From the NCBI GenBank assembly GCA_046758505.1, contig JBHIAH010000053.1:1-18304 (forward strand): a stretch of 18,304 nt of DNA. Direction: 5' to 3'. The notes below the pieces were generated by a model that worked only from the letters and a program-made list of their open reading frames with translations, was not told the DNA's origin and made no database searches. Both the position numbers and the translations under genes were made by a program. This DNA comes from Candidatus Methylomirabilales bacterium (GTDB lineage: Bacteria > Methylomirabilota > Methylomirabilia > Methylomirabilales > CSP1-5). Of the stretch, positions 1,793 to 13,351 are shown in pieces; the stretch's first letter is position 1, and each line of letters starts with the position of its first letter.

Positions 1793-3235
1793 ATGACACG
1801 GTGGCTCCACATTACGGTATGGACGGTCCTTTTCGTCGCCGCGTTCGCCGTGCCCCGGGCCGATGCCGAGTACCGGCGGGAGAGCTGGGGGGCCAAGGAG
1901 GGGGAGGCGTGCATCGCCTGCCATAGCGACCAGACCCCCGCCCTGGCGGAGGAGTGGCGCATCGGCCGCCACGGGCAGGCGGGCGTCAACTGCTACGATT
2001 GTCATCGCGCCGACAAGAAAGATCCGGATGCCTTCACGCACTTTGACCGGACCATCGCCATCCTGGTGAGCCCGAAGGACTGCGCCCAGTGCCACCAAAA
2101 GGAAGTCGATGAGCAGAAGGGGAGCCACCATGCGAAGGCGGGGCAGATCCTGGCCTCGCTGGACAATTTTCTGGGTGCGGTCGTGGGGGGGCCGCCAGCC
2201 GTCGCCACCGGATGCATGCAGTGCCACGGGTCGACCATCCGCGTCCTGGCGGGGGGAAAGCTCGATCCCACCACCTGGCCCAACACCGGGATCGGCCGGA
2301 TCAACCCGGACGGCAGCCGGGGGAGTTGTACCGCCTGTCACACCCGCCATGCCTTTTCGGTGGCGCAGGCCCGCCGGCCCGACGCCTGCGGGAAGTGCCA
2401 CCTGGGGCCGGATCATCCCCAAATCGAGGTCTACCAGGAGTCCAAGCACGGCATCCTCTATCAGGCGTTCAAAGATCGGCTGAACATTGACCGTTCCAAC
2501 TGGATCGTGGGGGTGGACTACACGGCGGCCCCCACCTGCGCGACCTGCCACATGAGCGCCACCCCGGATCAGGGCGTAACCCATGACGTGGGGGAGCGGA
2601 TCTCGTGGACCCTGCGGCCGCCCATTTCCAAGAAGCTCAACATGGTCGTCTTTGAGGATCTGTCGAAGACCGATATCCCGGAAGGGAAGCCGCTGCCCAA
2701 AGTCGGAAAAAAGTTTCGAGGGAAGCGGGTGAAGGAGGTCTTGACCTGGAAGGACAGGCGCAACCAGATGGTGAACGTGTGCCGCAACTGTCACGCCGAG
2801 CCGTTTGTGAGCGGGTTCTACCGGCAATTCGACGACCTGGTGAACCTGTACAACGACAAGTTCGGCCGCCCGGCCACTGCCATCATGAAAGCGCTCAAGA
2901 AGGCGGGGAAGCTCACGCCTGCTCCGTTCGACGAGAATCTCGAGTGGATCTACTGGGAGCTCTGGCACCACGAGGGACGCCGGGCCCGGCACGGTGCGTC
3001 CATGTCGGGACCCGATTACGCCTGGTGGCACGGTATGTACGAGGTTGCGAAAAGCTTCTACCTCCACTTCGTCCCGGAAGTGAAGCAGGTCGCCGGTGAG
3101 CCGCTTGCCACGAAGTTGCTCGACAAGTACGTCTTCTCCCAACCGGGGCACCGGTGGGTCAAGGAGGGGATGAGCAAGGAGCAGCTCAAGAAGATCCAAC
3201 AGTTCTATCGCGAGCGCTACGGCGAAGAAAAATAA
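1793..3235 (+). CDS. hao: Octaheme c-type cytochrome of the hydroxylamine oxidoreductase (HAO) family, probably reductive (epsilon-Hao-like)
   Basis: Sec signal peptide and 8 CxxCH motifs (CIACH, CYDCH, CAQCH, CMQCH, CTACH, CGKCH, CATCH, CRNCH). HAO-family motifs GRINPDGSRGSCTACHTRH, CHLGPDHPQIEVYQESKHG, APTCATCH, WHHEGRRARHGASMSGPDYAWWHG. RBS GAGGGGG. Confidence 0.9.
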   Translation: MTRWLHITVWTVLFVAAFAVPRADAEYRRESWGAKEGEACIACHSDQTPALAEEWRIGRHGQAGVNCYDCHRADKKDPDAFTHFDRTIAILVSPKDCAQCHQKEVDEQKGSHHAKAGQILASLDNFLGAVVGGPPAVATGCMQCHGSTIRVLAGGKLDPTTWPNTGIGRINPDGSRGSCTACHTRHAFSVAQARRPDACGKCHLGPDHPQIEVYQESKHGILYQAFKDRLNIDRSNWIVGVDYTAAPTCATCHMSATPDQGVTHDVGERISWTLRPPISKKLNMVVFEDLSKTDIPEGKPLPKVGKKFRGKRVKEVLTWKDRRNQMVNVCRNCHAEPFVSGFYRQFDDLVNLYNDKFGRPATAIMKALKKAGKLTPAPFDENLEWIYWELWHHEGRRARHGASMSGPDYAWWHGMYEVAKSFYLHFVPEVKQVAGEPLATKLLDKYVFSQPGHRWVKEGMSKEQLKKIQQFYRERYGEEK

Positions 3236-4078: not shown

Positions 4079-5848
4079 GTGAGAACTCCGTTTCCACCCC
4101 GTTACTTCTTGGCCTCGATCGCGCTGCTCCTGGTGCTCGTCGCCCTCTATGCGGTGTGGGCGATTCGGCGGACGCAACACGAGCTAACGCGCCAGCTCGA
4201 GCAGAAGGGGGTGGCGTTGGCCGAGGCCTTCGAGACAAGCAGTCAGAATGCCATCCAGGGTAACGCCCTGATGGAAGAGATGATCGCCCAGCGCCTCTTC
4301 GACAACGCCCGGCTCATTGACCAGCTCCTCCTCACCCGCCCGTTTGACCCGGCCCTGCTCAAACGGATCAGCGCCATGAATCGGCTCCAGCGGGTGGACC
4401 TGCTCGACCGCGAGGGGCGTCCTTATAAACCCCCGCGGACACGCCGGGGGATGGTGGGACCCGGGATGAGGGGCATGATGAGGGGGGCGCCAGGCTCCGC
4501 GGAGATGCGCGAAGCCCACCGCCGGATGATGATGTACATGTGGGGCCGTCGATGGGGACCGCGTCACGAAGAGGCGGTCCCACCCCCACCGCCGGTGGAG
4601 GAAGAGAAATTCTGGGAAGGGAGTCTCTTCGGTGTCGCCGTCGAGGCGCGAAGCTTTCCCGGCATCATCGCGGTTCACGCGGATGCCGACTACGTCTTGA
4701 ACTTCCGAAAAGAGATCGGAGTCGAGCAACAGATCCAGGAGCTCGGGCGGCAACCCGGGGTGGAGGAGGTCGCCCTTTTGGGATCTGATCTGACAGTGCT
4801 GGCTCATTCTGATCCGGGGCGCCAGGGCGAGCGAGAGAATGATAGTGTCCTGCAGCAGGCACTGGAGGGGCGGAAGCCGCTGAGCCGGCTGGTCACGGGC
4901 ACAGGGGGCACGGAAGTCTTCGAGGTTCTCAGGCCGCTCAGTCTGGGCGGCTCGCGACTCGGCCTGCTCAGGGTCGCCCTGTCGACGGCGCCGGTGGAGC
5001 AGGAATGGAAGCGGGATGTCCGGTCCGCCGCCGTCCTCGGATTGGCTGTCCTCTTGGCGGGCGCGTTGGGGATGGCTGTCATCTTTTACATGCAACACCG
5101 GCATCTGGTTGAGGTGAAATCCCTCGCGGCCGAGGTCGAGCGGCGCGATCGCCTCGCCTCGCTGGGGAACCTGGCAGCGGCCGTGGCCCACGAGGTCCGG
5201 AATCCGCTGAACGCCATTGCGATGGGGCTGCAGCGCTTGAGAGAAGAGTTCCGGCCTGCCAACGACGAAGCGGACTACGCCAGGTTTGTGGACCTGATGC
5301 AGGGGGAGGTCCAACGGCTGAATGGCATCGTACAGGAGTTTCTCTCGCTGGCCCGGCCCCTCTCGCTCAACCCCGATGCCGTCCAGATCGGGGAGCTGCT
5401 CAGCGAAGTGGCTGCGCTCGTTGAGCCGGATGCCGAAACGCGGGGGATCACGGTGAACCTCGATCTTTTGTCCGACCTTCCCTCCGCCCAGTTGGATCGG
5501 GACCACATCAAGCAGGTGCTCTTGAACCTTGTGTTGAACGGCCTTGAAGCCATGCCGGGTGGCGGGACGTTGACCATCTCTGCTGCGGTCACCCGTCAAG
5601 CCCTTGTCCTGACCGTCTCGGATACCGGCGGGGGCGTGCCTGCCGATCTCCTCCCCAAAATCTTCGAGCCCTATGTCACCACCAAGGCCAAGGGGATGGG
5701 GCTCGGCCTCACCATCGCGCGGCGGATTATCGAGGCCCATGGGGGCACCATCGCGGTCGAGAGCCGGCCGGGCGAAGGTACCCGGTCCACCCTTACTCTT
5801 CCCCTCACGCTCTCAACCTTCACCTCAGAGCGCCCAGACGATGGCTAA
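4079..5848 (+). CDS. Membrane sensor histidine kinase (ZraS/AtoS-like)
   Basis: GTG start after GGAGG. Two TM helices flank a large periplasmic region. H-box AHEVRNPLNAI, N-box QVLLNLVLNGLEAM, G1 DTGGG, F-box IFEPYVTTK, G2 GMGLGL. Confidence 0.92.
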   Translation: MRTPFPPRYFLASIALLLVLVALYAVWAIRRTQHELTRQLEQKGVALAEAFETSSQNAIQGNALMEEMIAQRLFDNARLIDQLLLTRPFDPALLKRISAMNRLQRVDLLDREGRPYKPPRTRRGMVGPGMRGMMRGAPGSAEMREAHRRMMMYMWGRRWGPRHEEAVPPPPPVEEEKFWEGSLFGVAVEARSFPGIIAVHADADYVLNFRKEIGVEQQIQELGRQPGVEEVALLGSDLTVLAHSDPGRQGERENDSVLQQALEGRKPLSRLVTGTGGTEVFEVLRPLSLGGSRLGLLRVALSTAPVEQEWKRDVRSAAVLGLAVLLAGALGMAVIFYMQHRHLVEVKSLAAEVERRDRLASLGNLAAAVAHEVRNPLNAIAMGLQRLREEFRPANDEADYARFVDLMQGEVQRLNGIVQEFLSLARPLSLNPDAVQIGELLSEVAALVEPDAETRGITVNLDLLSDLPSAQLDRDHIKQVLLNLVLNGLEAMPGGGTLTISAAVTRQALVLTVSDTGGGVPADLLPKIFEPYVTTKAKGMGLGLTIARRIIEAHGGTIAVESRPGEGTRSTLTLPLTLSTFTSERPDDG

Positions 5849-7196
5849 GTCTTTCCGTATCCTGGTGGTGGACGACGAGCCGGCCCAGCTCGAACTGGTC
5901 AGCGGGTTCCTCGCCAAACGCGGCTACGACGTCTCGCTCGCCTCGAACGGCGAGGAGGCGCTGCAACGGTTCAAGCGGGAGCCATTCGATCTCGTGCTGA
6001 CCGACCAGAAGATGCCCGGTTTCTCGGGCCGCGAGCTGACCGAGGCGGTGCGGCGCGCACATCCCGAGGTTCCGGTCATCGTGATGACGGCGTACGGCAC
6101 GATCGAGACGGCGGTCGCCGCCATCCAGGCCGGAGCGGTGGACTACCTTACGAAGCCCCTCAATCTGGACGAGCTGCTCCACCGGGTTCAGCGAATCCAA
6201 GAGCGGCAGCGCCTTCTCACCGAAAACCGCGAGCTGCGCGAAGCCCTGCAGGAACGCCACCGCGTGGAGGGGATCATCGGTAACAGTGGCCGGATGCAAG
6301 AGGTCCTCTCGATGGTGCGGCGGGTGGCGCCGAGCGACGCCACGGTGCTGATCCGGGGCGAAAGCGGCACCGGTAAGGAGCTGATCGCCAAGGCGATCCA
6401 CTACGCGAGCCCGCGCGCACCCGGGCCCCTCGTCCGCGTCAACTGTGCGGCACTCCCCGAGAGCCTCATGGAGTCAGAACTCTTCGGCCACGAGAAGGGG
6501 GCTTTTACCGGTGCCGTGGCGGCCCGCAAGGGTCGGTTCGAACTGGCCGACGGCGGCAGTCTCTTTTTGGACGAGATCGGCGACCTCCCTCCACACCTGC
6601 AGGTCAAGCTCCTCCGCGTGCTCCAGGAGCGGGAGATCGAGCGGGTGGGGTCGAGCCGGCCGATCGCCGTCAACGTCCGGGTCCTCGCCGCGACCCATCG
6701 GGATCTGGAAGCGTTGATACACGACGGACGCTTTCGCGAGGATCTCTTCTATCGAATCAACGTGGTCACCATCAGCGTGCCGCCGCTCGAAGAGCGCCGG
6801 GAAGACCTGCCCCCCCTCATCGACCACTTCCTGCGGACCTTTGCCACGAAAAATGGCAAGACCATTCGCGGGCTGACGCGGGAGGCACGCGAGGCCCTCC
6901 TCCGGTACGATTACCCGGGGAACGTCCGGGAGCTCGAGAACATGATCGAGCGGGCCGTGGTCTTGACGCGGGACGAGGTGATCGATCTCAGCGATCTTCC
7001 TCTGAGTCTTCCGGAGCCGGGGGAGCACGGAGAGGAAGGGGGTCTCACGGCCGCGGTGGAAGGGCTTGAGCGGCGGATGATCCGAGACGCGTTGGCCAAG
7101 GCCGGGGGCACCCAGACCCGCGCCGCCGAGCTTCTCGGGATCAGCGAACGCGTGCTCCGATACAAGCTCAAGAAGTACGGCCTCTCCGCCGACTGA
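5841..7196 (+). CDS. Sigma-54-dependent response regulator (NtrC/ZraR/AtoC family)
   Basis: Receiver (VVDDE, LTDQKMP, TKP), Walker A GESGTGKE, GAFTGA, Walker B LFLDEIGD, RFREDLFYRIN, PGNVRELEN and a Fis-type HTH. ATG overlaps the kinase 3' end. Confidence 0.95.
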   Translation: MAKSFRILVVDDEPAQLELVSGFLAKRGYDVSLASNGEEALQRFKREPFDLVLTDQKMPGFSGRELTEAVRRAHPEVPVIVMTAYGTIETAVAAIQAGAVDYLTKPLNLDELLHRVQRIQERQRLLTENRELREALQERHRVEGIIGNSGRMQEVLSMVRRVAPSDATVLIRGESGTGKELIAKAIHYASPRAPGPLVRVNCAALPESLMESELFGHEKGAFTGAVAARKGRFELADGGSLFLDEIGDLPPHLQVKLLRVLQEREIERVGSSRPIAVNVRVLAATHRDLEALIHDGRFREDLFYRINVVTISVPPLEERREDLPPLIDHFLRTFATKNGKTIRGLTREAREALLRYDYPGNVRELENMIERAVVLTRDEVIDLSDLPLSLPEPGEHGEEGGLTAAVEGLERRMIRDALAKAGGTQTRAAELLGISERVLRYKLKKYGLSAD

Positions 7197-7339: not shown

Positions 7340-7467
7340 CCCTCTTACTTTTTCGGCTTGCCCCCGCTCTCAGTTTCGGTTAGAGAGGGGGAGAAGGATT
7401 CAAGTGTGAACTGCCGGTGTTCGTTGACCTGGCGCGGAGGCTGTCAATGCCTCGGAAGGAGGTGACG

Positions 7468-8589
7468 ATGCGGATGCGAATTCGCGGTTCCCGTCCCTGT
7501 TCCCTTGGGGTGTTGCCCCTGGCCCTCCTGCTCGCCGCCGGGGCAGCCTGGGCGCATGAGGCGCCCGTCCTGCCGCTTCCCTCCGAGCAGCTCTCGCCCG
7601 CGGCCAAGGCGAAGGGGTATGCGGGGCCCGAGGCCTGCGCCGAGTGCCACAGCGACCAGTACAACGACTACCGGGCCTCCGGCCATCCCAAGAAGCTGCG
7701 GCCTGCGGCTGAAGCCCGGGCCTGGGGAGTCCCGCTGCCCGAGGGCTACGACTGGAGCGACATCAGCTACGTGATCGGCGGGGCCCGGTGGAAGGCGCGG
7801 TTCGTCGGCAAAGACGGCTACATCATCACGAAGACCGGCCCGAACAAGGACACACCGGGCAAGAACCAGTACAACCTGGCGACGGGCCGCTGGGTGAACT
7901 ACCACCCCGGCGAGAAGAAGGCGTATACCTGCGGCACCTGCCATACCACCGGCTATAGCAAGCCGGGGCACCAGGACGGCTTGCCGGGCATCACGGGGAC
8001 CTGGGCCTTCCCCGGGATCACCTGCGAGGCGTGTCATGGCCCGGGGGCGGCCCACGCCGCAGCGCCGAGCAAGGAGAACATCAAGGTGGATAAGTCGCCG
8101 GCGGCCTGCGGCACGTGTCACATCCGGGGGACGAAGGAAAAGATTCCCGCCAAGAAGGGGTTCATCCGCCACCACGAGCAGTACAACGAGTACCTCGCCG
8201 GCCCCCACGCGGGGAAGCTCAGCTGCGCTACCTGTCATGACCCCCACAAGCGGGCCACGGTCTCGATCAAGAAGCGGTGCGCGGCCTGCCATCGCACGCA
8301 GGCCAAGGCGTTTACGGGGAGCACGATGCAGCGATCTGGCGTCACGTGCGTGGACTGCCACATGCCCCCGGCCGGGAAGAGCGCCGAATCCTTCGGGAAA
8401 TACATCGGCGATGTCAAGTCCCATATCGTGAAGATCTCAACCGGGCCACAGGACAAGATGTTCACCGCCGATGGGAAGTTCGCCACGGGCAAGCTGACCC
8501 TGGACTTTGCCTGCCTCCGCTGCCACGGTGCCCGGGATATCACCTGGGCGCGGGCCAACGCCAAGGGGATCCACGCCCGCGGCAAGTAG
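7468..8589 (+). CDS. Periplasmic octaheme c-type cytochrome (non-HAO; probable electron-transfer protein)
   Basis: ATG 7468 after AAGGAGGTG, signal peptide ending AWA|HE, and 8 CxxCH motifs (CAECH, CGTCH, CEACH, CGTCH, CATCH, CAACH, CVDCH, CLRCH). Confidence 0.9.
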   Translation: MRMRIRGSRPCSLGVLPLALLLAAGAAWAHEAPVLPLPSEQLSPAAKAKGYAGPEACAECHSDQYNDYRASGHPKKLRPAAEARAWGVPLPEGYDWSDISYVIGGARWKARFVGKDGYIITKTGPNKDTPGKNQYNLATGRWVNYHPGEKKAYTCGTCHTTGYSKPGHQDGLPGITGTWAFPGITCEACHGPGAAHAAAPSKENIKVDKSPAACGTCHIRGTKEKIPAKKGFIRHHEQYNEYLAGPHAGKLSCATCHDPHKRATVSIKKRCAACHRTQAKAFTGSTMQRSGVTCVDCHMPPAGKSAESFGKYIGDVKSHIVKISTGPQDKMFTADGKFATGKLTLDFACLRCHGARDITWARANAKGIHARGK

Positions 8590-8618
8590 CCCGGGTATTC
8601 CGATAGCGATTACGGGGT

Positions 8619-8660
8619 GAGGGGCTCCGTCCGGAGGGACGGAGCCCCTCCTTATTTTAT
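8619..8660 (+). terminator. Intrinsic terminator after the octaheme gene
   Basis: Perfect 14-bp stem GAGGGGCTCCGTCC-ggag-GGACGGAGCCCCTC followed by CTTATTTTAT. Confidence 0.8.
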
Positions 8661-8721
8661 GTCGGCAAGTCCAGGGATGATGGTGCAGACCGTGGGACAG
8701 ACGGGGCACAATCCGACGTGG

Positions 8722-8822
8722 TGAGACAATGGTGTCCCACCCGGCTAAGCTAGTCCCATTGGGCCATGGGGAGTGGTTCTCCGTGCCTAATCCCTCATTC
8801 GGTCTGGGGCAGCCGTGCCTCA
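8722..8822. promoter_or_regulatory. Paired UAS dyads TGRGRCA-N4-TGYCYCA (copy 1)
   Basis: TGAGACA-ATGG-TGTCCCA (8722-8739) and TGGGGCA-GCCG-TGCCTCA (8805-8822), 83 bp apart. Confidence 0.7.
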
Positions 8823-8919
8823 ATGGCCTGGACCCTCTCCGTTCCGCCTTACGTGTCATTTCATGAAAAATTCATGAAAAATTAACAGGTTGGAGCATGA
8901 GGGGGATCTGTTCTGCATT

Positions 8920-8935
8920 TGGCATCCGCATTGCT
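8920..8935 (+). promoter_or_regulatory. Sigma-54 promoter of the Fe-S/molybdoenzyme operon
   Basis: TGGCAT-CCGCA-TTGCT, preceded by an AT-rich tract (TTCATGAAAAA x2 at 8860-8881). Confidence 0.85.
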
Positions 8936-9088
8936 CTCCGTGCGGGAAGCTGCGCACCATGTGAAGAAGTGCACAAGTCAAGTTTCTTCCTGATCTTGGT
9001 CATGGAGAGTGAATCAGCGGGGTCCGAGCTTTCCATACGGTGCGTGGAGGGAGGCGGCAACCCGAACATCTAACGCAAGTTCAAATCA

Positions 9089-9214
9089 GATCTCCGAGCC
9101 ATCCCGATCCCCCCGGGGCGGGATGGACCCGACGGCCGGAGGAGCGATCCCCCGGCCAGCCCGATGGTCCGGAGGCGATGCGAGGGTTCCGGGCCTGAAT
9201 TGGCAAAGGAGATC
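9089..9214 (+). ncRNA. Structured leader RNA resembling a Moco/Wco riboswitch
   Basis: P1 GATCTCC (9089-9095) / GGAGATC (9208-9214) encloses stems CCATCCCG/CGGGATGG, GGCCGGAGGA-GCGA(GNRA)-TCCCCCGGCC and GGTCCGGA/TCCGGGCC. The boundaries CTCCGAGC... and ...TGGCAAAGGAG resemble the Moco RNA motif, and it sits in the 5' UTR of a molybdoenzyme operon. Confidence 0.55.
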
Positions 9215-9245
9215 GTTCCGACGGGAACGATCTCCTTTGTGTTTC
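9204..9245 (+). terminator. Leader terminator/attenuator overlapping riboswitch P1
   Basis: Perfect 16-bp stem CAAAGGAGATCGTTCC-gacg-GGAACGATCTCCTTTG followed by TGTTT. Confidence 0.7.
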
Positions 9246-9355
9246 GAGGGGCACAATGGGTTTCACGTGAGCCGCTCGAGGTTGCGACAGGGTAGCGACA
9301 GTCGGGCTCAGAGGGTCGGTGGGGGGTTGGAGCCGACATCACAAAGGAGGGGACG

Positions 9356-10138
9356 ATGGCTTTGAATGAGCTGCAGCGGATGCATGAAGACCTGGAAAGA
9401 GCCCTGAGGAAGCCGGCATCGAAGCGCTCCTGGGCGATGGTGATCGATCTGAGAAAATGCGTCGGGTGTCACGCCTGTACGGTGTCCTGTGCCGCTGAGA
9501 ACGTGTGCCCGCCAGGAACTTCGTACCGAAAGGTCTTTGAAGTCGAGTATCAGTCCTTTCCGGAGTTGGATCGGTTTTTCATGCCGGCAAACTGCCAGCA
9601 GTGCGATAACCCGCCGTGCATGAAGGCCGCCAACAAAGTCGCCCCCGGTGCCATCGAAAAGCGGAAAGACGGGATCGTGGAGTTCAGGTACGACAGACTC
9701 AGGAAGAACGCACGGGCGGGTGAGGCGGCGCAAAAGGCGTGTCCGTACTACGCCATCGTCGAGGATAGGGGGGGGTTTTACACCGAGGGTACCCCGGTGC
9801 TTGAAGCCTACGAGACGAGGAATTTCTATGAATATGACGAGACGCTAAACCGCAAAAAGGGAGATACAAGGGGCGCGATCAGGAAATGCACCTTCTGCCC
9901 CCACCGTCTCGACAGCGGGATGCTGCCGGCATGTGTTTCGACCTGCATCGGCAGGGCGATGTACTTTGGTGACAAGAACGATCCCAAGAGCCTCGTGTCG
10001 GAGTTGATTCGGAATGAGAAGGTCTGGAATCTGAAGGCCGGTCTCGGCACCGGACCGAGAATCTACTATATCGGGTACGAGCACAGGACGACGATTGCGG
10101 TTGGCACGCCCGCAACCTGCACGGTTTGCCACGAATAG
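9356..10138 (+). CDS. Fe-S electron-transfer subunit (TtrB/SrdB/PsrB/DmsB family), three-cluster variant with C-terminal CxxCH
   Basis: RBS AAAGGAGGGG. WAMVIDLRKCVGCHACTVSC, CQQCDNPPC, ACPY, KCTFCPHRL...PACVSTCIGRAMYFGD, GTGPRIYY, ending CTVCHE. Confidence 0.9.
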   Translation: MALNELQRMHEDLERALRKPASKRSWAMVIDLRKCVGCHACTVSCAAENVCPPGTSYRKVFEVEYQSFPELDRFFMPANCQQCDNPPCMKAANKVAPGAIEKRKDGIVEFRYDRLRKNARAGEAAQKACPYYAIVEDRGGFYTEGTPVLEAYETRNFYEYDETLNRKKGDTRGAIRKCTFCPHRLDSGMLPACVSTCIGRAMYFGDKNDPKSLVSELIRNEKVWNLKAGLGTGPRIYYIGYEHRTTIAVGTPATCTVCHE

Positions 10139-10150
10139 GGAGGCGCGATC

Positions 10151-13100
10151 ATGGCGGAGAAGACGAACGGATCCTGTAGATTAGCCGAATACCTCGAGAA
10201 GCTCCCGGAAAGGGAGATCTCCAGAAGATCCCTTTTGAAGTCGGGTGCACTCCTTGGCGGCTCGGCGGTGCTCATGAGTCAGCTCGAGGCGACCTCGATG
10301 CTGGCGAGAAGCGCAGAGGCGGCGGGCCGGGTTGCGGGGGGGTATCCCCTATCCAAGGCCGAGAACACCATCTATTCCGTCTGCCTGCAGTGCCACACGG
10401 CCTGTCCCATCAAGGTCAAGGTGCTGAACGGGATCGCGGTCAAGGTCGACGGCAACCCGTACAGTGAAAATATGATCCCCAACCTCGACTACTCTGCCCC
10501 GTTATCAAAGGGGGCGAAGATCGATGCAAAGGTCTGCCCGAAGGGCCAGTCCGGCATTCAGAGTCTCTACGACCCCTATCGGATCGTGAAAGTGCTCAAG
10601 AGAAACGGCCCGCGGGGTTCGAACAAGTGGACCGTGATTCCGTTCGATCAGGCCGTTGACGAGATTGTCAATGGCGGCAAGCTCTTTGCCTCGATCGGGG
10701 AGCAGAGGCACGTCCCCGGACTGAAAGAGATCTACGGATTGCGGGATGCCAAGCTTTCCGCCCGGATGGCGAAGGATGCCACGGCTGTTGCCAAAGGGAA
10801 AATGCAGGTGGCTGATTTCAAATCGAAATACCGGGCCCACCTGGATGTCTTGATTGACCCGGATCACCCGGATCTCGGCCCAAAGAACAATCAGCTCCTG
10901 ACGATGTGGGGGCGGATCGAGCACGGCCGAATCGAGCTCGGCAAGCGATTCATGTACGGCTCGTTTGGCTCGCACAACCTGATCGAACACACGTGCATCT
11001 GCGAACAGTCCCACCACATCGCCTATAAGGAGAGTACGAAGCAGTATAAGGGCGGGAAATGGAAAAAGGGAAAAACCCATATGAAACCCGATGCGTTCAA
11101 TGCGGAGTTCATCGTTTACTTCGGCACGGGTTTCGTGGAGGCCAACTTTGGACCGCCAGCGATGTGCGAAAAGGTCACCGAGGGGTTGGCCTCTGGACGG
11201 CTCAAGGTGGCCGTGGTGGACCCGAGGATGAGCAAGTCGGCGGCCAAGGCGTGGAAGTGGCTGCCCATCCAGCCGTCGACGGATGCGGCACTGGCGCTGG
11301 CCATGATTCGCTGGATGATCGAGCACAAGAGATACGATGCGCGGTATCTGGCGAACGCCAACAAGGCCGCGGCGAAGGCCTCCGGGGAGACCACGTGGTC
11401 CAACGCCGCGCATCTCGTCAAGATCGAGAAAGATGGTCCCGGGGCGCTGTTGCGGGCATCGGACGTTGGGGTGGGCGGCAAGGATGCCTTTGTGGTTGTC
11501 CGAGAGGGGAATGCCGTGTCTGTGAAGGTCGGTGACGGCAAGAACGCCGTCACCGGGGATCTCGATTTCAGCGGCGAGATCAATGGCGTGAAGGTCAAGA
11601 CGGCGTTTCGGCTCTTGAAGGAGGAGGCGTTCTCTCGCGGCCTGGCGGAGTGGTCCGCCATCTGCGGGATTCCGGTGAAAGACATCGAGGAGGTTGCGAG
11701 GGAGCTCACCTCGCACGGCAAGAAGGCCGCGGTCGAGTTTTACCGGGGGCCTGTCCAGCACACCAACGGGTTTTACAACGCGCGGGCGCTCATCGCGCTC
11801 AATATCCTCCTGGGGAATGCGGATCACAAGGGGGGCATGTCGGTCGGCGGCAGCCACTGGCACGAGTTTGGAGGGAAGTCGAAGGAACAATTCAGTGTCA
11901 AGAAGAAGAAGATGCATCCCAACATGCTCACGGCCTTCGGCCACAAGATCACGAGGGAGGGGTCGCATTACGAGCAGTCGACGCTCTTCCGTGGCTATCC
12001 CGCCAAGAGGCCGTGGCTGCCGTTTACCAGCAATGTGTACCAGGAGGCGCTGCCGTCAGCAGCGGACGGCTATCCGTATCCGATCAAGGCGCTCTGGCTG
12101 CACATGGGATCGCCCGGATACGCCTCCCCCGCAGCCCATACGGCGCTCAAGATCCTCGCGGACGTGGAGAAAATCCCCCTGTTCTTCTCGACCGACATCG
12201 TGCTCGGCGAAAGCACGATGTACGCGGATTACGTCTTCCCCGACACCGCGATCTGGGAGCGGTTTGGAAACCCCCATGCGTCGCCGGATGTGCCGTTGCG
12301 GGCGTCGAAGTTCCGGCAGCCCACGGTCACTCCGCTCACCGAGGTGGTGACGGTGTTCGGAGAAAAGATGCACTGCTCCTACGAGGCGGTCCTCCTGGCC
12401 ATTGCCGAACGGCTCAAACTGTCGGGCTTTGGCACCGACGGGTTCGGCCGCGGATGGGGCTTGACCCGACCGGAGGATTGGTTCCTCAAACTTGCGGCCA
12501 ACATGGCGGTGGGCGACAAGAAAGGCGATTCGGTGCCGGCTGCCTCCTTCGACGAGATGAAGCTGTTTGTGAAGGCACGGAGGCATCTCAAACCGACCGT
12601 CTTTTCCGCCCGCAGGTGGGAAAAGGCAGTCGGCTCCGACAAATGGAAGAGGACGGTGACCGTCCTCAACAGAGGGGGCCGTTGGGAAAAGTGGGCCGAT
12701 GAGGTTACCAACGGCAAGGGGATGCTGGTGCACAAGTTCAAAAAACAGCTCAACCTCTACGTCGAGCGGGTGGCCGTGGCGAAACAGTCCCTCACGGGCA
12801 AGAGGTTCTCCGGCGTCCCGATCTATGAACCTCCCAAGGACGCTGCCGGGAATCTGGCTGTCGACAGGAATATGCCGCTCCAGCTCATCACCTACAAGGA
12901 TATCCTCGGCGGCCAGTCGAGAACGCTGCCCGGGAACTACTGGCTGAGCTCGATCCTGCCGGAGAATTACCTGCTGATCAATGTCGGGACGGCCAAGAAG
13001 CTGGGCTTTGAGGACGGCGACAAGGCCAGGCTGATCTCTGCCACGAACCATGACGGCAAGTGGCACCTGCCCAACCGGGGGGCGGTCGATATGGTCGGCA

Positions 13101-13351
13101 AGATTAAGGCCGTGGAAGGCATGGCCCCTGGGGTCGTGGCGGTGTCATGGCACTTCGGACACTGGGGGTACGGTGCAGCGGACAGCGTCATTGATGGCAG
13201 GACGATCAAGGGGGACAAGCGGCGCACGACGGGTCTGTGCCCCAATGCCGCCATGAAGGTCGATCCCGTGCTCAAGAATGCGTGCATGACGGATCCGATC
13301 GGGGGAAGCTCGTCGTATTATGACACCAGGGTCACGCTTATGAAGGCATGA
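10151..13351 (+). CDS. Tat-exported molybdopterin oxidoreductase catalytic subunit, TtrA/SrdA-like clade
   Basis: 1066 aa. Tat motif SRRSLLK, FS0 motif CLQCHTAC...CPKG. TtrA-like stretches KVDGNPYS, YDPYRIVKVLKRNGPRG, DEIVNGGKLF, LGPKNNQL, AVVDPR, GESTMYADYVFPD and C-terminal PGVVAVSWHFGHW. Substrate cannot be assigned from sequence alone. Confidence 0.88.
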   Translation: MAEKTNGSCRLAEYLEKLPEREISRRSLLKSGALLGGSAVLMSQLEATSMLARSAEAAGRVAGGYPLSKAENTIYSVCLQCHTACPIKVKVLNGIAVKVDGNPYSENMIPNLDYSAPLSKGAKIDAKVCPKGQSGIQSLYDPYRIVKVLKRNGPRGSNKWTVIPFDQAVDEIVNGGKLFASIGEQRHVPGLKEIYGLRDAKLSARMAKDATAVAKGKMQVADFKSKYRAHLDVLIDPDHPDLGPKNNQLLTMWGRIEHGRIELGKRFMYGSFGSHNLIEHTCICEQSHHIAYKESTKQYKGGKWKKGKTHMKPDAFNAEFIVYFGTGFVEANFGPPAMCEKVTEGLASGRLKVAVVDPRMSKSAAKAWKWLPIQPSTDAALALAMIRWMIEHKRYDARYLANANKAAAKASGETTWSNAAHLVKIEKDGPGALLRASDVGVGGKDAFVVVREGNAVSVKVGDGKNAVTGDLDFSGEINGVKVKTAFRLLKEEAFSRGLAEWSAICGIPVKDIEEVARELTSHGKKAAVEFYRGPVQHTNGFYNARALIALNILLGNADHKGGMSVGGSHWHEFGGKSKEQFSVKKKKMHPNMLTAFGHKITREGSHYEQSTLFRGYPAKRPWLPFTSNVYQEALPSAADGYPYPIKALWLHMGSPGYASPAAHTALKILADVEKIPLFFSTDIVLGESTMYADYVFPDTAIWERFGNPHASPDVPLRASKFRQPTVTPLTEVVTVFGEKMHCSYEAVLLAIAERLKLSGFGTDGFGRGWGLTRPEDWFLKLAANMAVGDKKGDSVPAASFDEMKLFVKARRHLKPTVFSARRWEKAVGSDKWKRTVTVLNRGGRWEKWADEVTNGKGMLVHKFKKQLNLYVERVAVAKQSLTGKRFSGVPIYEPPKDAAGNLAVDRNMPLQLITYKDILGGQSRTLPGNYWLSSILPENYLLINVGTAKKLGFEDGDKARLISATNHDGKWHLPNRGAVDMVGKIKAVEGMAPGVVAVSWHFGHWGYGAADSVIDGRTIKGDKRRTTGLCPNAAMKVDPVLKNACMTDPIGGSSSYYDTRVTLMKA

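Follow-up and report, generated by a model that had tools for sequence, protein, structure and literature searches.

A divergent P3-less Moco-class aptamer overlaps a terminator-like hairpin ahead of a molybdoenzyme operon and may act as a transcriptional ON switch

Results

The locus and its leader

The window, that is, the whole stretch of 18,304 nt analysed here, carries on its plus strand the genes of a molybdopterin enzyme. The first (9356..10138) encodes a TtrB/ArrB-like 4Fe-4S subunit, which scores below cut-offs, and the second (10151..13351) encodes a TtrA-like catalytic subunit of the DMSO-reductase family (469.8 bits against a cut-off of 1750) with a twin-arginine-like N-terminus. 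A sigma-54-type promoter with −24/−12 elements is predicted from the sequence at 8920..8935 (+), and such a site is also present at the matching place in the loci L003 and L004. From the spacing, +1 is expected near 8946, 410 nt ahead of the ATG at 9356. The initial annotation had proposed a sigma-54-type site at 8920 and a leader of about 410 nt to this ATG, and these coordinates are right. The ribosome-binding site is at 9343..9350 (+), and the structure of its region is ordinary (z −0.45).

Several other features were seen around the leader. A multihaem cytochrome gene (7417-8589) is followed by a strong terminator (8619-8660), which insulates the leader. A ZraS/AtoC-like two-component pair with a sigma-54 activator is encoded upstream (4079-7196), and an inverted hexamer pair at 8694-8738, about 200 bases before the promoter, could be the binding site of this activator. 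Another multihaem cytochrome, of a family resembling hydroxylamine/hydrazine oxidoreductases, is encoded at 1793-3235. Between the promoter and the aptamer, a stretch of 30-40 bases (8972-9011) is common to the window and L004 and is absent in L003; it could reflect shared descent or be a further element. Among 29 homologous leaders, five have a sigma-54-type site and 14 have repeated boxes. These 9-base boxes lie around positions −50 and −85 relative to the aptamer (for example, in L005, L008, L011 and L064). In many cases a NarL-like response regulator gene ends just before them, and they are a likely operator.

In the window's genome (96.8% complete), moaA, moaC, mobA, one aldehyde:ferredoxin oxidoreductase (AOR)-like gene and several molybdopterin enzymes gave matches; ModA, WtpA and TupA/TupB gave none. 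A PF12849 match was found at C41.

A conserved fold closed by P1

The region 9089..9214 (+) forms an aptamer-like domain, which we assign to a P3-less Moco-class variant with a GCC/GGC P5. It scores 109.9 bits with R1, a model made from window-type RNAs without any canonical RF01055 sequence, and its stems covary. When 9085-9216 was folded, P1 closed a junction that bears three more stems (z −3.45, matched by 0 of 200 shuffles), which confirms the multi-stem junction and the two P1 strands of the initial annotation. P1 is formed by GATCTCC (9089..9095) and GGAGATC (9208..9214), and its four core pairs are kept in 28 of 28 members. The P2 hairpin (9099..9126), supported by the fold and covariation, is without the 11-nt GAAA receptor. 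The junction J2/4 (9127..9133) contains no P3 and is unlike the canonical P3-less junction. P4 (9134..9157) is a 10-bp stem, in which both sides change in 7 of 10 pairs; its GCGA loop at 9144-9147 is the GNRA cap noticed earlier. P5 (9159..9204) pairs GCC (9159-9161) with GGC (9202-9204) and encloses an inserted variable hairpin, P5a (9166-9195), which is absent in L148 and present in the canonical-core L157. In L009:1414-1579 and L011:1498-1663, P5a bears an extra hairpin of 50 bases, which we take to resemble an interspersed repeat element. The initial annotation was mistaken in one respect: the CCUCCCGU segment said to be missing is kept as CCAGCCCGA (9156-9164) and is set apart from the aptamer 3′ end by the inserted hairpin.

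When 22 members were aligned, 92.6% of the cells were paired and 22 of 37 pairs changed on both sides. This level of covariation was reached by 0 of 500 shuffles, and slid controls gave at most 57.7%. Thus, covariation among homologous leaders bears out the fold. In a larger alignment of 28 members to the model, 91.7% were paired and 23 of 37 pairs showed two-sided changes, although this alignment is biased towards the model and covariation counts are raised by relatedness among the sequences. Within the GCC/GGC subtype, P5 itself shows no covariation because its pairs are near invariant.

The family was collected by several searches. At the DNA level, matches were obtained in 17 of 61 genomes, the window's own included; several weak matches were spurious, and L014, L015, L017 and L018 are not the motif. 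Scanning metagenome contigs for the pattern yielded 62 matches, of which 23 were judged by eye to be the whole motif and 39 were discarded; from the 23, six duplicates were left out together with L093, where the contig stops 2 nt past the aptamer. Searches with R1 found a single copy in the window's genome and matches in 14 of 151 genomes of its phylum and 17 of 151 of its class. Further matches came from the phyla of G174 (5 of 151 genomes) and G329 (3 of 151) and from the class of G178 (1 of 151). A pattern search of 401 genomes found only the known G227 copy, and searches around G445 and G227 found no further copies. Two weak matches of a second model, R2, among 151 genomes of the phylum of G176 were judged to be chance, as were two viral-contig matches and L174.

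The RNA element was present in none of 24 loci with first-gene orthologues from other groups. Because of this result, and because promoter types vary while the aptamer-terminator cassette is retained, the RNA seems to move independently of the genes; it also follows that the enzyme can do without the RNA. L006 and L007 are truncated aptamers without a terminator, and L013 has a damaged P1. These apparently decayed copies, together with L125, show that the control can be lost. L006, L007 and L125 (truncated or without P4) were excluded from the counts.

P1 and the terminator-like hairpin share a strand

Directly at the end of the aptamer lies an intrinsic-terminator-like hairpin (9204..9244, +). 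It has a GC-rich stem of 12 bp (9208-9235), extendable to 9204-9239, with an energy of −21.7 kcal/mol, and is followed by a T tract (9236-9244) with a predicted 3′ end at about 9243-9244. The perfect 16-bp hairpin of the initial annotation (9204-9239) therefore stands; its tail, given there as TGTTT, is better than that, because counted from the 12-bp stem it is TTTGTGTTT, with 7 T of 9. Perfect stems of at least 16 bp occur only five times in the window's genome. A consensus terminator scan of the window did not list the 9204-9244 hairpin and gave two sites, both at 8619-8651.

The P1 3′ strand (9208..9214) is the switching strand, since it is also part of the 5′ arm of this hairpin. A second GATCTCC, at 9229-9235 in the 3′ arm, is an exact copy of the P1 5′ strand. 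Once downstream sequence was included in the fold, P1 was replaced by the hairpin, so the mutual exclusion claimed earlier was borne out. When the 60 downstream bases were shuffled, a segment fully complementary to the P1 3′ strand and followed by a T-rich tail arose in 17 of 200000 cases. The growing transcript was then followed with ViennaRNA, whose energies contain no tertiary terms: the probability of P1 was 0.99 up to 9230, that of the terminator was 1.00 at 9235, and the terminator was favoured by 5.9 kcal/mol at 9235 and by 11.8 kcal/mol at 9244. The upper 5 bp of the hairpin are compatible with a closed P1. A translational role of the hairpin was considered and rejected: AAAGGAG lies inside it without a following start codon, and the true ribosome-binding site is 110 nt further on.

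Relationship to the Moco class

The initial annotation had called the element Moco-like and had pointed to the Rfam Moco motif (RF01055) for confirmation. A search with this motif gave no match in the window at E values up to 10. In a scan of 8000-10000 with Rfam there were nine weak matches, none of them Moco at E up to 10; the matches to miRNA families in this region are merely the hairpin. On the whole genome of the window, RF01055 gave one match (E 8.37), located elsewhere, and it matched neither eight homologous loci nor L148 and L154-L156. The best RF01055 score of a GCC-type RNA was 24 bits (L092), below the 36-bit gathering cut-off. Moco-II, a candidate motif tied to molybdenum genes, had no match in the Rfam scans of the window, the homologous loci and the short relatives.

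The relationship is found through intermediates. R1 also detects shorter relatives (about 90 nt). Of five such RNAs from the window's own class, four pass the 36-bit RF01055 cut-off (46.8, 40.5, 39.6 and 36.2 bits), and three copies found in another phylum pass it too (44.3, 41.4 and 39.2 bits). Reciprocally, with its filters off, R1 gave 11 of 15 canonical RF01055 members scores of 18.2-27.9 bits, higher than any of the 15 decoys (best 17.3 bits), which were loci chosen for matching the 3′ pattern of the variant; the remaining four canonical members scored within the range of the decoys or lower. Bridging relatives that pass RF01055 and the reciprocal R1 search thus support homology to the Moco class.

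Comparison with the Rfam consensus shows that the P1 core, GA junction, P4 base (GG/CC), P5-loop ends (CG...UU) and AAA junction are kept, and that J2/4 and the base of P5 are changed. The window's RNA has four differences: it lacks P3, its P5 has one additional G-C pair, a hairpin is inserted into the P5 loop, and its GNRA loop is not GAAA and has no receptor. The 11-nt receptor-like motif occurs in 1 of 34 variant members versus 10 of 16 canonical ones. The GNRA loops among the members are GCGA (11), GCAA (8), GUAA (7), GUGA (4) and GAAA (1). Of the 34 GCC-type members, 33 carry the 3′ end UGGC-AAA; for those found by pattern, this figure is to some extent circular. L148 is without the insertion and is still missed by Rfam, and L157, which has the insertion on a canonical core, scores 58.8. 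Therefore, the insertion is not the defining change. By P5, three types can be distinguished: CC/GG (canonical), GC/GC, and GCC/GGC, to which the window's RNA belongs.

As with known members, the RNA lies upstream of cofactor-synthesis or cofactor-using genes. We conclude that 9089-9214 is a divergent P3-less Moco-class aptamer by descent rather than by score, an assignment that the sequence comparisons support well. Because the score and the GAAA/receptor features fail, we do not file it as a member of RF01055. "Variant", one of two labels considered initially, suits this RNA, and a "new motif" is not needed. No canonical RF01055 RNA above the cut-off was found in five variant-carrying genomes.

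Wiring and the function of the downstream genes

The position of the terminator relative to P1 was scored by a fixed rule, namely a single hairpin followed by a T tract. (A looser rule accepted multibranched folds for some canonical RNAs.) Before enzyme operons, the terminator contains the P1 3′ strand in 24 of 27 GCC-type loci, and the three misses, L010, L054 and L013, overlap under the looser rule. Two of two GCC-type loci on short contigs also show the overlap. The terminator arm tracks the P1 3′ strand through four strand versions. All of these loci are related and mostly from one order, so the counts in this section are not independent and carry no claim of significance. Downstream of the 27 enzyme loci, a molybdopterin catalytic subunit was found in 21, only a 4Fe-4S subunit in five and only the shared cytochrome gene in one. 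L148 precedes a WD40 gene and napDAGHBF, in which NapA, a molybdoenzyme, scores far above its cut-off. The downstream enzymes (TtrA-like, PhsA-like and NapA) differ in substrate class.

In contrast, none of five GCC-type RNAs before biosynthetic genes has a P1-overlapping terminator. The first gene is mobA-like in four of these loci, with best scores of 93.8-151 bits (below cut-offs and well above MocA), and moaA-moaC follow in the fifth. In L103, L154 and L155, when P1 is blocked in the fold, its 3′ strand becomes free and pairs with the 5′ arm of a terminator located downstream, which is an OFF arrangement; this was not seen in the P1-blocked folds of L156 and L092. mobA is the first gene in none of 26 canonical or GC/GC loci examined.

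RNAs of the GC/GC type show the overlap in eight of nine AOR-operon loci, two of the nine being labelled AOR by gene-order inference. Nine of ten GC/GC loci were classed as AOR operons, versus 0 of 29 GCC-type enzyme loci. Under the fixed rule, the canonical RNAs have a P1-overlapping terminator in 1 of 16 cases (L132), a downstream terminator in nine and none in six. The conserved overlap before enzyme operons and its contrast with the OFF wiring before biosynthetic genes support, at the level of sequence, the ON wiring first proposed for the window. ON wiring is not universal among enzyme operons, since L143 (G095), a canonical P3-less aptamer before a xanthine-dehydrogenase-family operon, has OFF wiring.

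Some further arrangements were observed. At L132:1055-1185 and L134:1510-1640 (G023 and G019), canonical RF01055 aptamers have ON wiring, with a terminator that overlaps P1 (in L134 by the looser rule); behind them lie genes for an ASKHA/RACo activator, a corrinoid protein and a methyltransferase-like protein, with no Mo/W enzyme in 6-7 kb. The GC/GC aptamers of L149, L150, L151 and L153 (phylum of G174) and of L119-L126 (G061 and G095) are often tandem, each with an overlapping terminator, before AOR operons. In some AOR leaders, a FIST-domain gene lies between two GC/GC copies.

Discussion

The element is probably a cis-acting Moco-class riboswitch wired as a transcriptional ON switch, in which the cofactor stabilises P1. 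From the computed sequence, fold, covariation, homology, overlap and context, we infer promoter use, termination and direct ligand binding as follows. Transcription would start at the sigma-54 promoter, the aptamer would fold first, and P1 would close; the upper 5 bp of the hairpin would form beside P1 as a toehold. Without ligand, the 9229-9235 arm would displace the P1 5′ strand by branch migration, and the 12-bp hairpin with its U tract would terminate transcription near 9244. If a pyranopterin cofactor occupied the P1/P2/P4/P5 junction, P1 would stay closed, the hairpin would be limited to a 5-bp stub, and polymerase would continue into the molybdoenzyme genes. As a consequence, the costly apo-enzyme would be made solely when cofactor is at hand. 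The dependence of read-through on cofactor is suggested by the class (PMC2408646) and the gene context.

Two readings keep the overlap without cofactor sensing by the RNA itself. In the first, the aptamer would be a vestige or would act as a kinetic timer, and the terminator would give a fixed read-through regardless of cofactor. The decayed copies (L006, L007 and L125) are consistent with this idea, as is the energy of the full-length terminator, which is ahead by 3 to 13 kcal/mol across loci; moreover, the mRNA behind the sister-type wor1 leader of Eubacterium limosum is unchanged under tungsten limitation (PMC11725836). However, the junction nucleotides are near invariant while the stems covary, and ON and OFF wirings sort with enzyme and biosynthesis genes, which a fixed attenuator would not need. 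We therefore consider a fixed attenuator improbable. In the second, the ON wiring is kept, but a protein (a cofactor-binding regulator or maturation chaperone) holds P1, and the RNA binds no cofactor. In the portions of PMC2408646 covered here, even the E. coli Moco RNA is without proof of direct binding, and the GAAA/receptor contact is lost in the variant. Nevertheless, the junction core is kept in at least three genome groups and in both wirings, and no neighbouring gene is common to the loci; a protein as the direct binder of the RNA has a low probability.

The ON switch could also respond to a different compound. In riboswitch families, altered junction nucleotides often signal a changed ligand. 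The variant has changed junction nucleotides and respiratory genes downstream, so it might have shifted to an unrelated ligand, for example, the oxyanion substrate of the enzyme or a redox signal. However, the enzymes of different substrate classes share only the cofactor, and five loci precede cofactor-synthesis genes. A shift of this kind seems very unlikely.

A narrower form of the ON-switch explanation is that the RNA is specific for the tungsten cofactor and serves tungsten-using enzymes. The absence of P3 would fit, because P3-less RNAs were linked with tungsten metabolism in 17 of 19 organisms (PMC2408646), and the sister GC/GC type lies before AORs. Against this, the same aptamer precedes napDAGHBF. 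The lack of TupA/TupB and WtpA matches in the window's genome says little, since ModA has no match either. Accordingly, we give tungsten specificity only a small chance. Of the original "Moco/Wco-like" label, the Moco class stands and Wco is doubtful, the aptamer being found before both napA and mobA-like genes.

If the RNA is a cofactor switch, Moco or metal-free MPT has nearly an even chance of being the ligand, a guanine-dinucleotide form (MGD or bis-MGD) is a serious candidate at somewhat less than even, and a tungsten-specific ligand would be unlikely. The more ambitious proposal is that the aptamer recognises MGD/bis-MGD, represses mobA, whose product makes this form, and activates DMSO-reductase-family enzymes, its only users, and would thereby be a new ligand class within the Moco family. 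We put this forward tentatively, as something that may well prove wrong. It is suggested because mobA starts four of five biosynthetic loci and none of 26 others and because GCC-type enzyme loci are never AOR. bis-MGD is the cofactor that members of the DMSO-reductase family share (PMC4633490), and the E. coli Moco RNA represses without mobA (PMC2408646). Against the proposal, one locus precedes moaA-moaC, and the MobA scores are below curated cut-offs; the four mobA loci may also share one origin. Under this proposal, the P5 types would sort by cofactor form, with CC/GG for general Moco/Wco, GC/GC for bis-MPT (AOR) and GCC/GGC for the dinucleotide. Relatives seem to use the same RNA oppositely, shutting off the enzyme that finishes the cofactor, which hints that it is the finished cofactor that is sensed.

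The P3-less subclass of RF01055 (PMC2408646) resembles the window's variant in the P1 core, GA, P2, P4 with its GNRA loop and GG/CC base, the CG...UU ends of P5 and AAA, as well as in the lack of P3 and the position before cofactor genes. The variant differs in its score below detection, the extra G-C pair of P5, the usual presence of a P5-loop hairpin, the altered J2/4, the GCGA/GCAA/GUAA/GUGA loops, the lack of the 11-nt receptor, the ON terminator wiring and the context of DMSO-reductase-family enzymes and mobA-like genes. In the covered portions of PMC2408646, repression is described and terminators are mentioned, and activation is not; four GCAA members without receptor are included, and the 3′ signature of the variant was not found in the aptamer rows seen.

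The WOR1 Tuco riboswitches of E. limosum, Moorella thermoacetica and Faecalicatena (PMC11725836, Fig. S10) are likewise receptor-less, P3-less and located before a cofactor-using enzyme. Their P5 ends in GC-AAA, as in the sister type before AOR genes here; unlike the window's variant, they have a two-pair GC/GC P5, no insertion and an AOR context. By eye, the E. limosum wor1 leader (Fig. S10B-i of PMC11725836) has its P1 3′ strand inside a hairpin with a T tract directly 3′ of the aptamer, a feature on which the authors make no comment in the covered text. They propose translational repression (OFF). Under tungsten limitation, wor1 mRNA did not drop (2699 versus 3158 and 10923 versus 12106 counts; fold change −1.17 to −1.01), although enzyme activity fell below 10% (PMC11725836). 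The unchanged mRNA argues against a tungsten-specific ON switch and leaves either a pterin sensor that is blind to the metal or an attenuator that does not respond.

The E. coli torC leader, a proposed bis-MGD riboswitch (PMC10845959), is comparable in its described logic, in which bis-MGD is needed to transcribe the operon of a bis-MGD enzyme. Unlike in the window, no conserved motif or structure is identified in the covered text of that paper; according to its authors, the torC element does not resemble the moaA RNA and is confined to E. coli. The Moco-II RNA motif is listed in PMC2864571. Within the literature searched, which was mostly open-access and in part covered by excerpts (among them 10.1101/2024.10.15.618519, PMC9971707, PMC2700814, PMC11672702, PMC13390414, PMC3766115 and PMC10265488), we found neither a description of this variant nor a terminator-based ON Moco riboswitch.

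In the same partly covered literature, the ligand of the Moco class is never directly shown; only repression is demonstrated. Because the variant occurs in ON and OFF wirings, with genes pointing to one late cofactor form, the ligand question becomes genetically testable. Rfam misses an entire branch of Moco-class RNAs, the rule that no P3 means tungsten is weakened by the variant, and the direction of control of the published AOR-linked Tuco riboswitches may have been misread. If the MGD proposal were true, MGD would be a new riboswitch ligand and its sensor a biosensor for molybdoenzyme maturation.

Two observations concern neighbouring genes. In L154/L159, L103 and L157/L161, an ECF-S-like membrane protein and a TonB-dependent receptor are under Moco-class control. 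The ECF-S-like protein is 28% identical between L154 and L161, and mobA comes first (GCC type) or is absent (canonical core); the two proteins are a possible pterin-cofactor importer. In the orthologous operons L023-L046 (Nitrospirota and others), the leaders have, by eye, sigma-54-like sites after repeated GTTAC/GTAAC inverted boxes, and a small tatA-like gene comes first in several of these operons.
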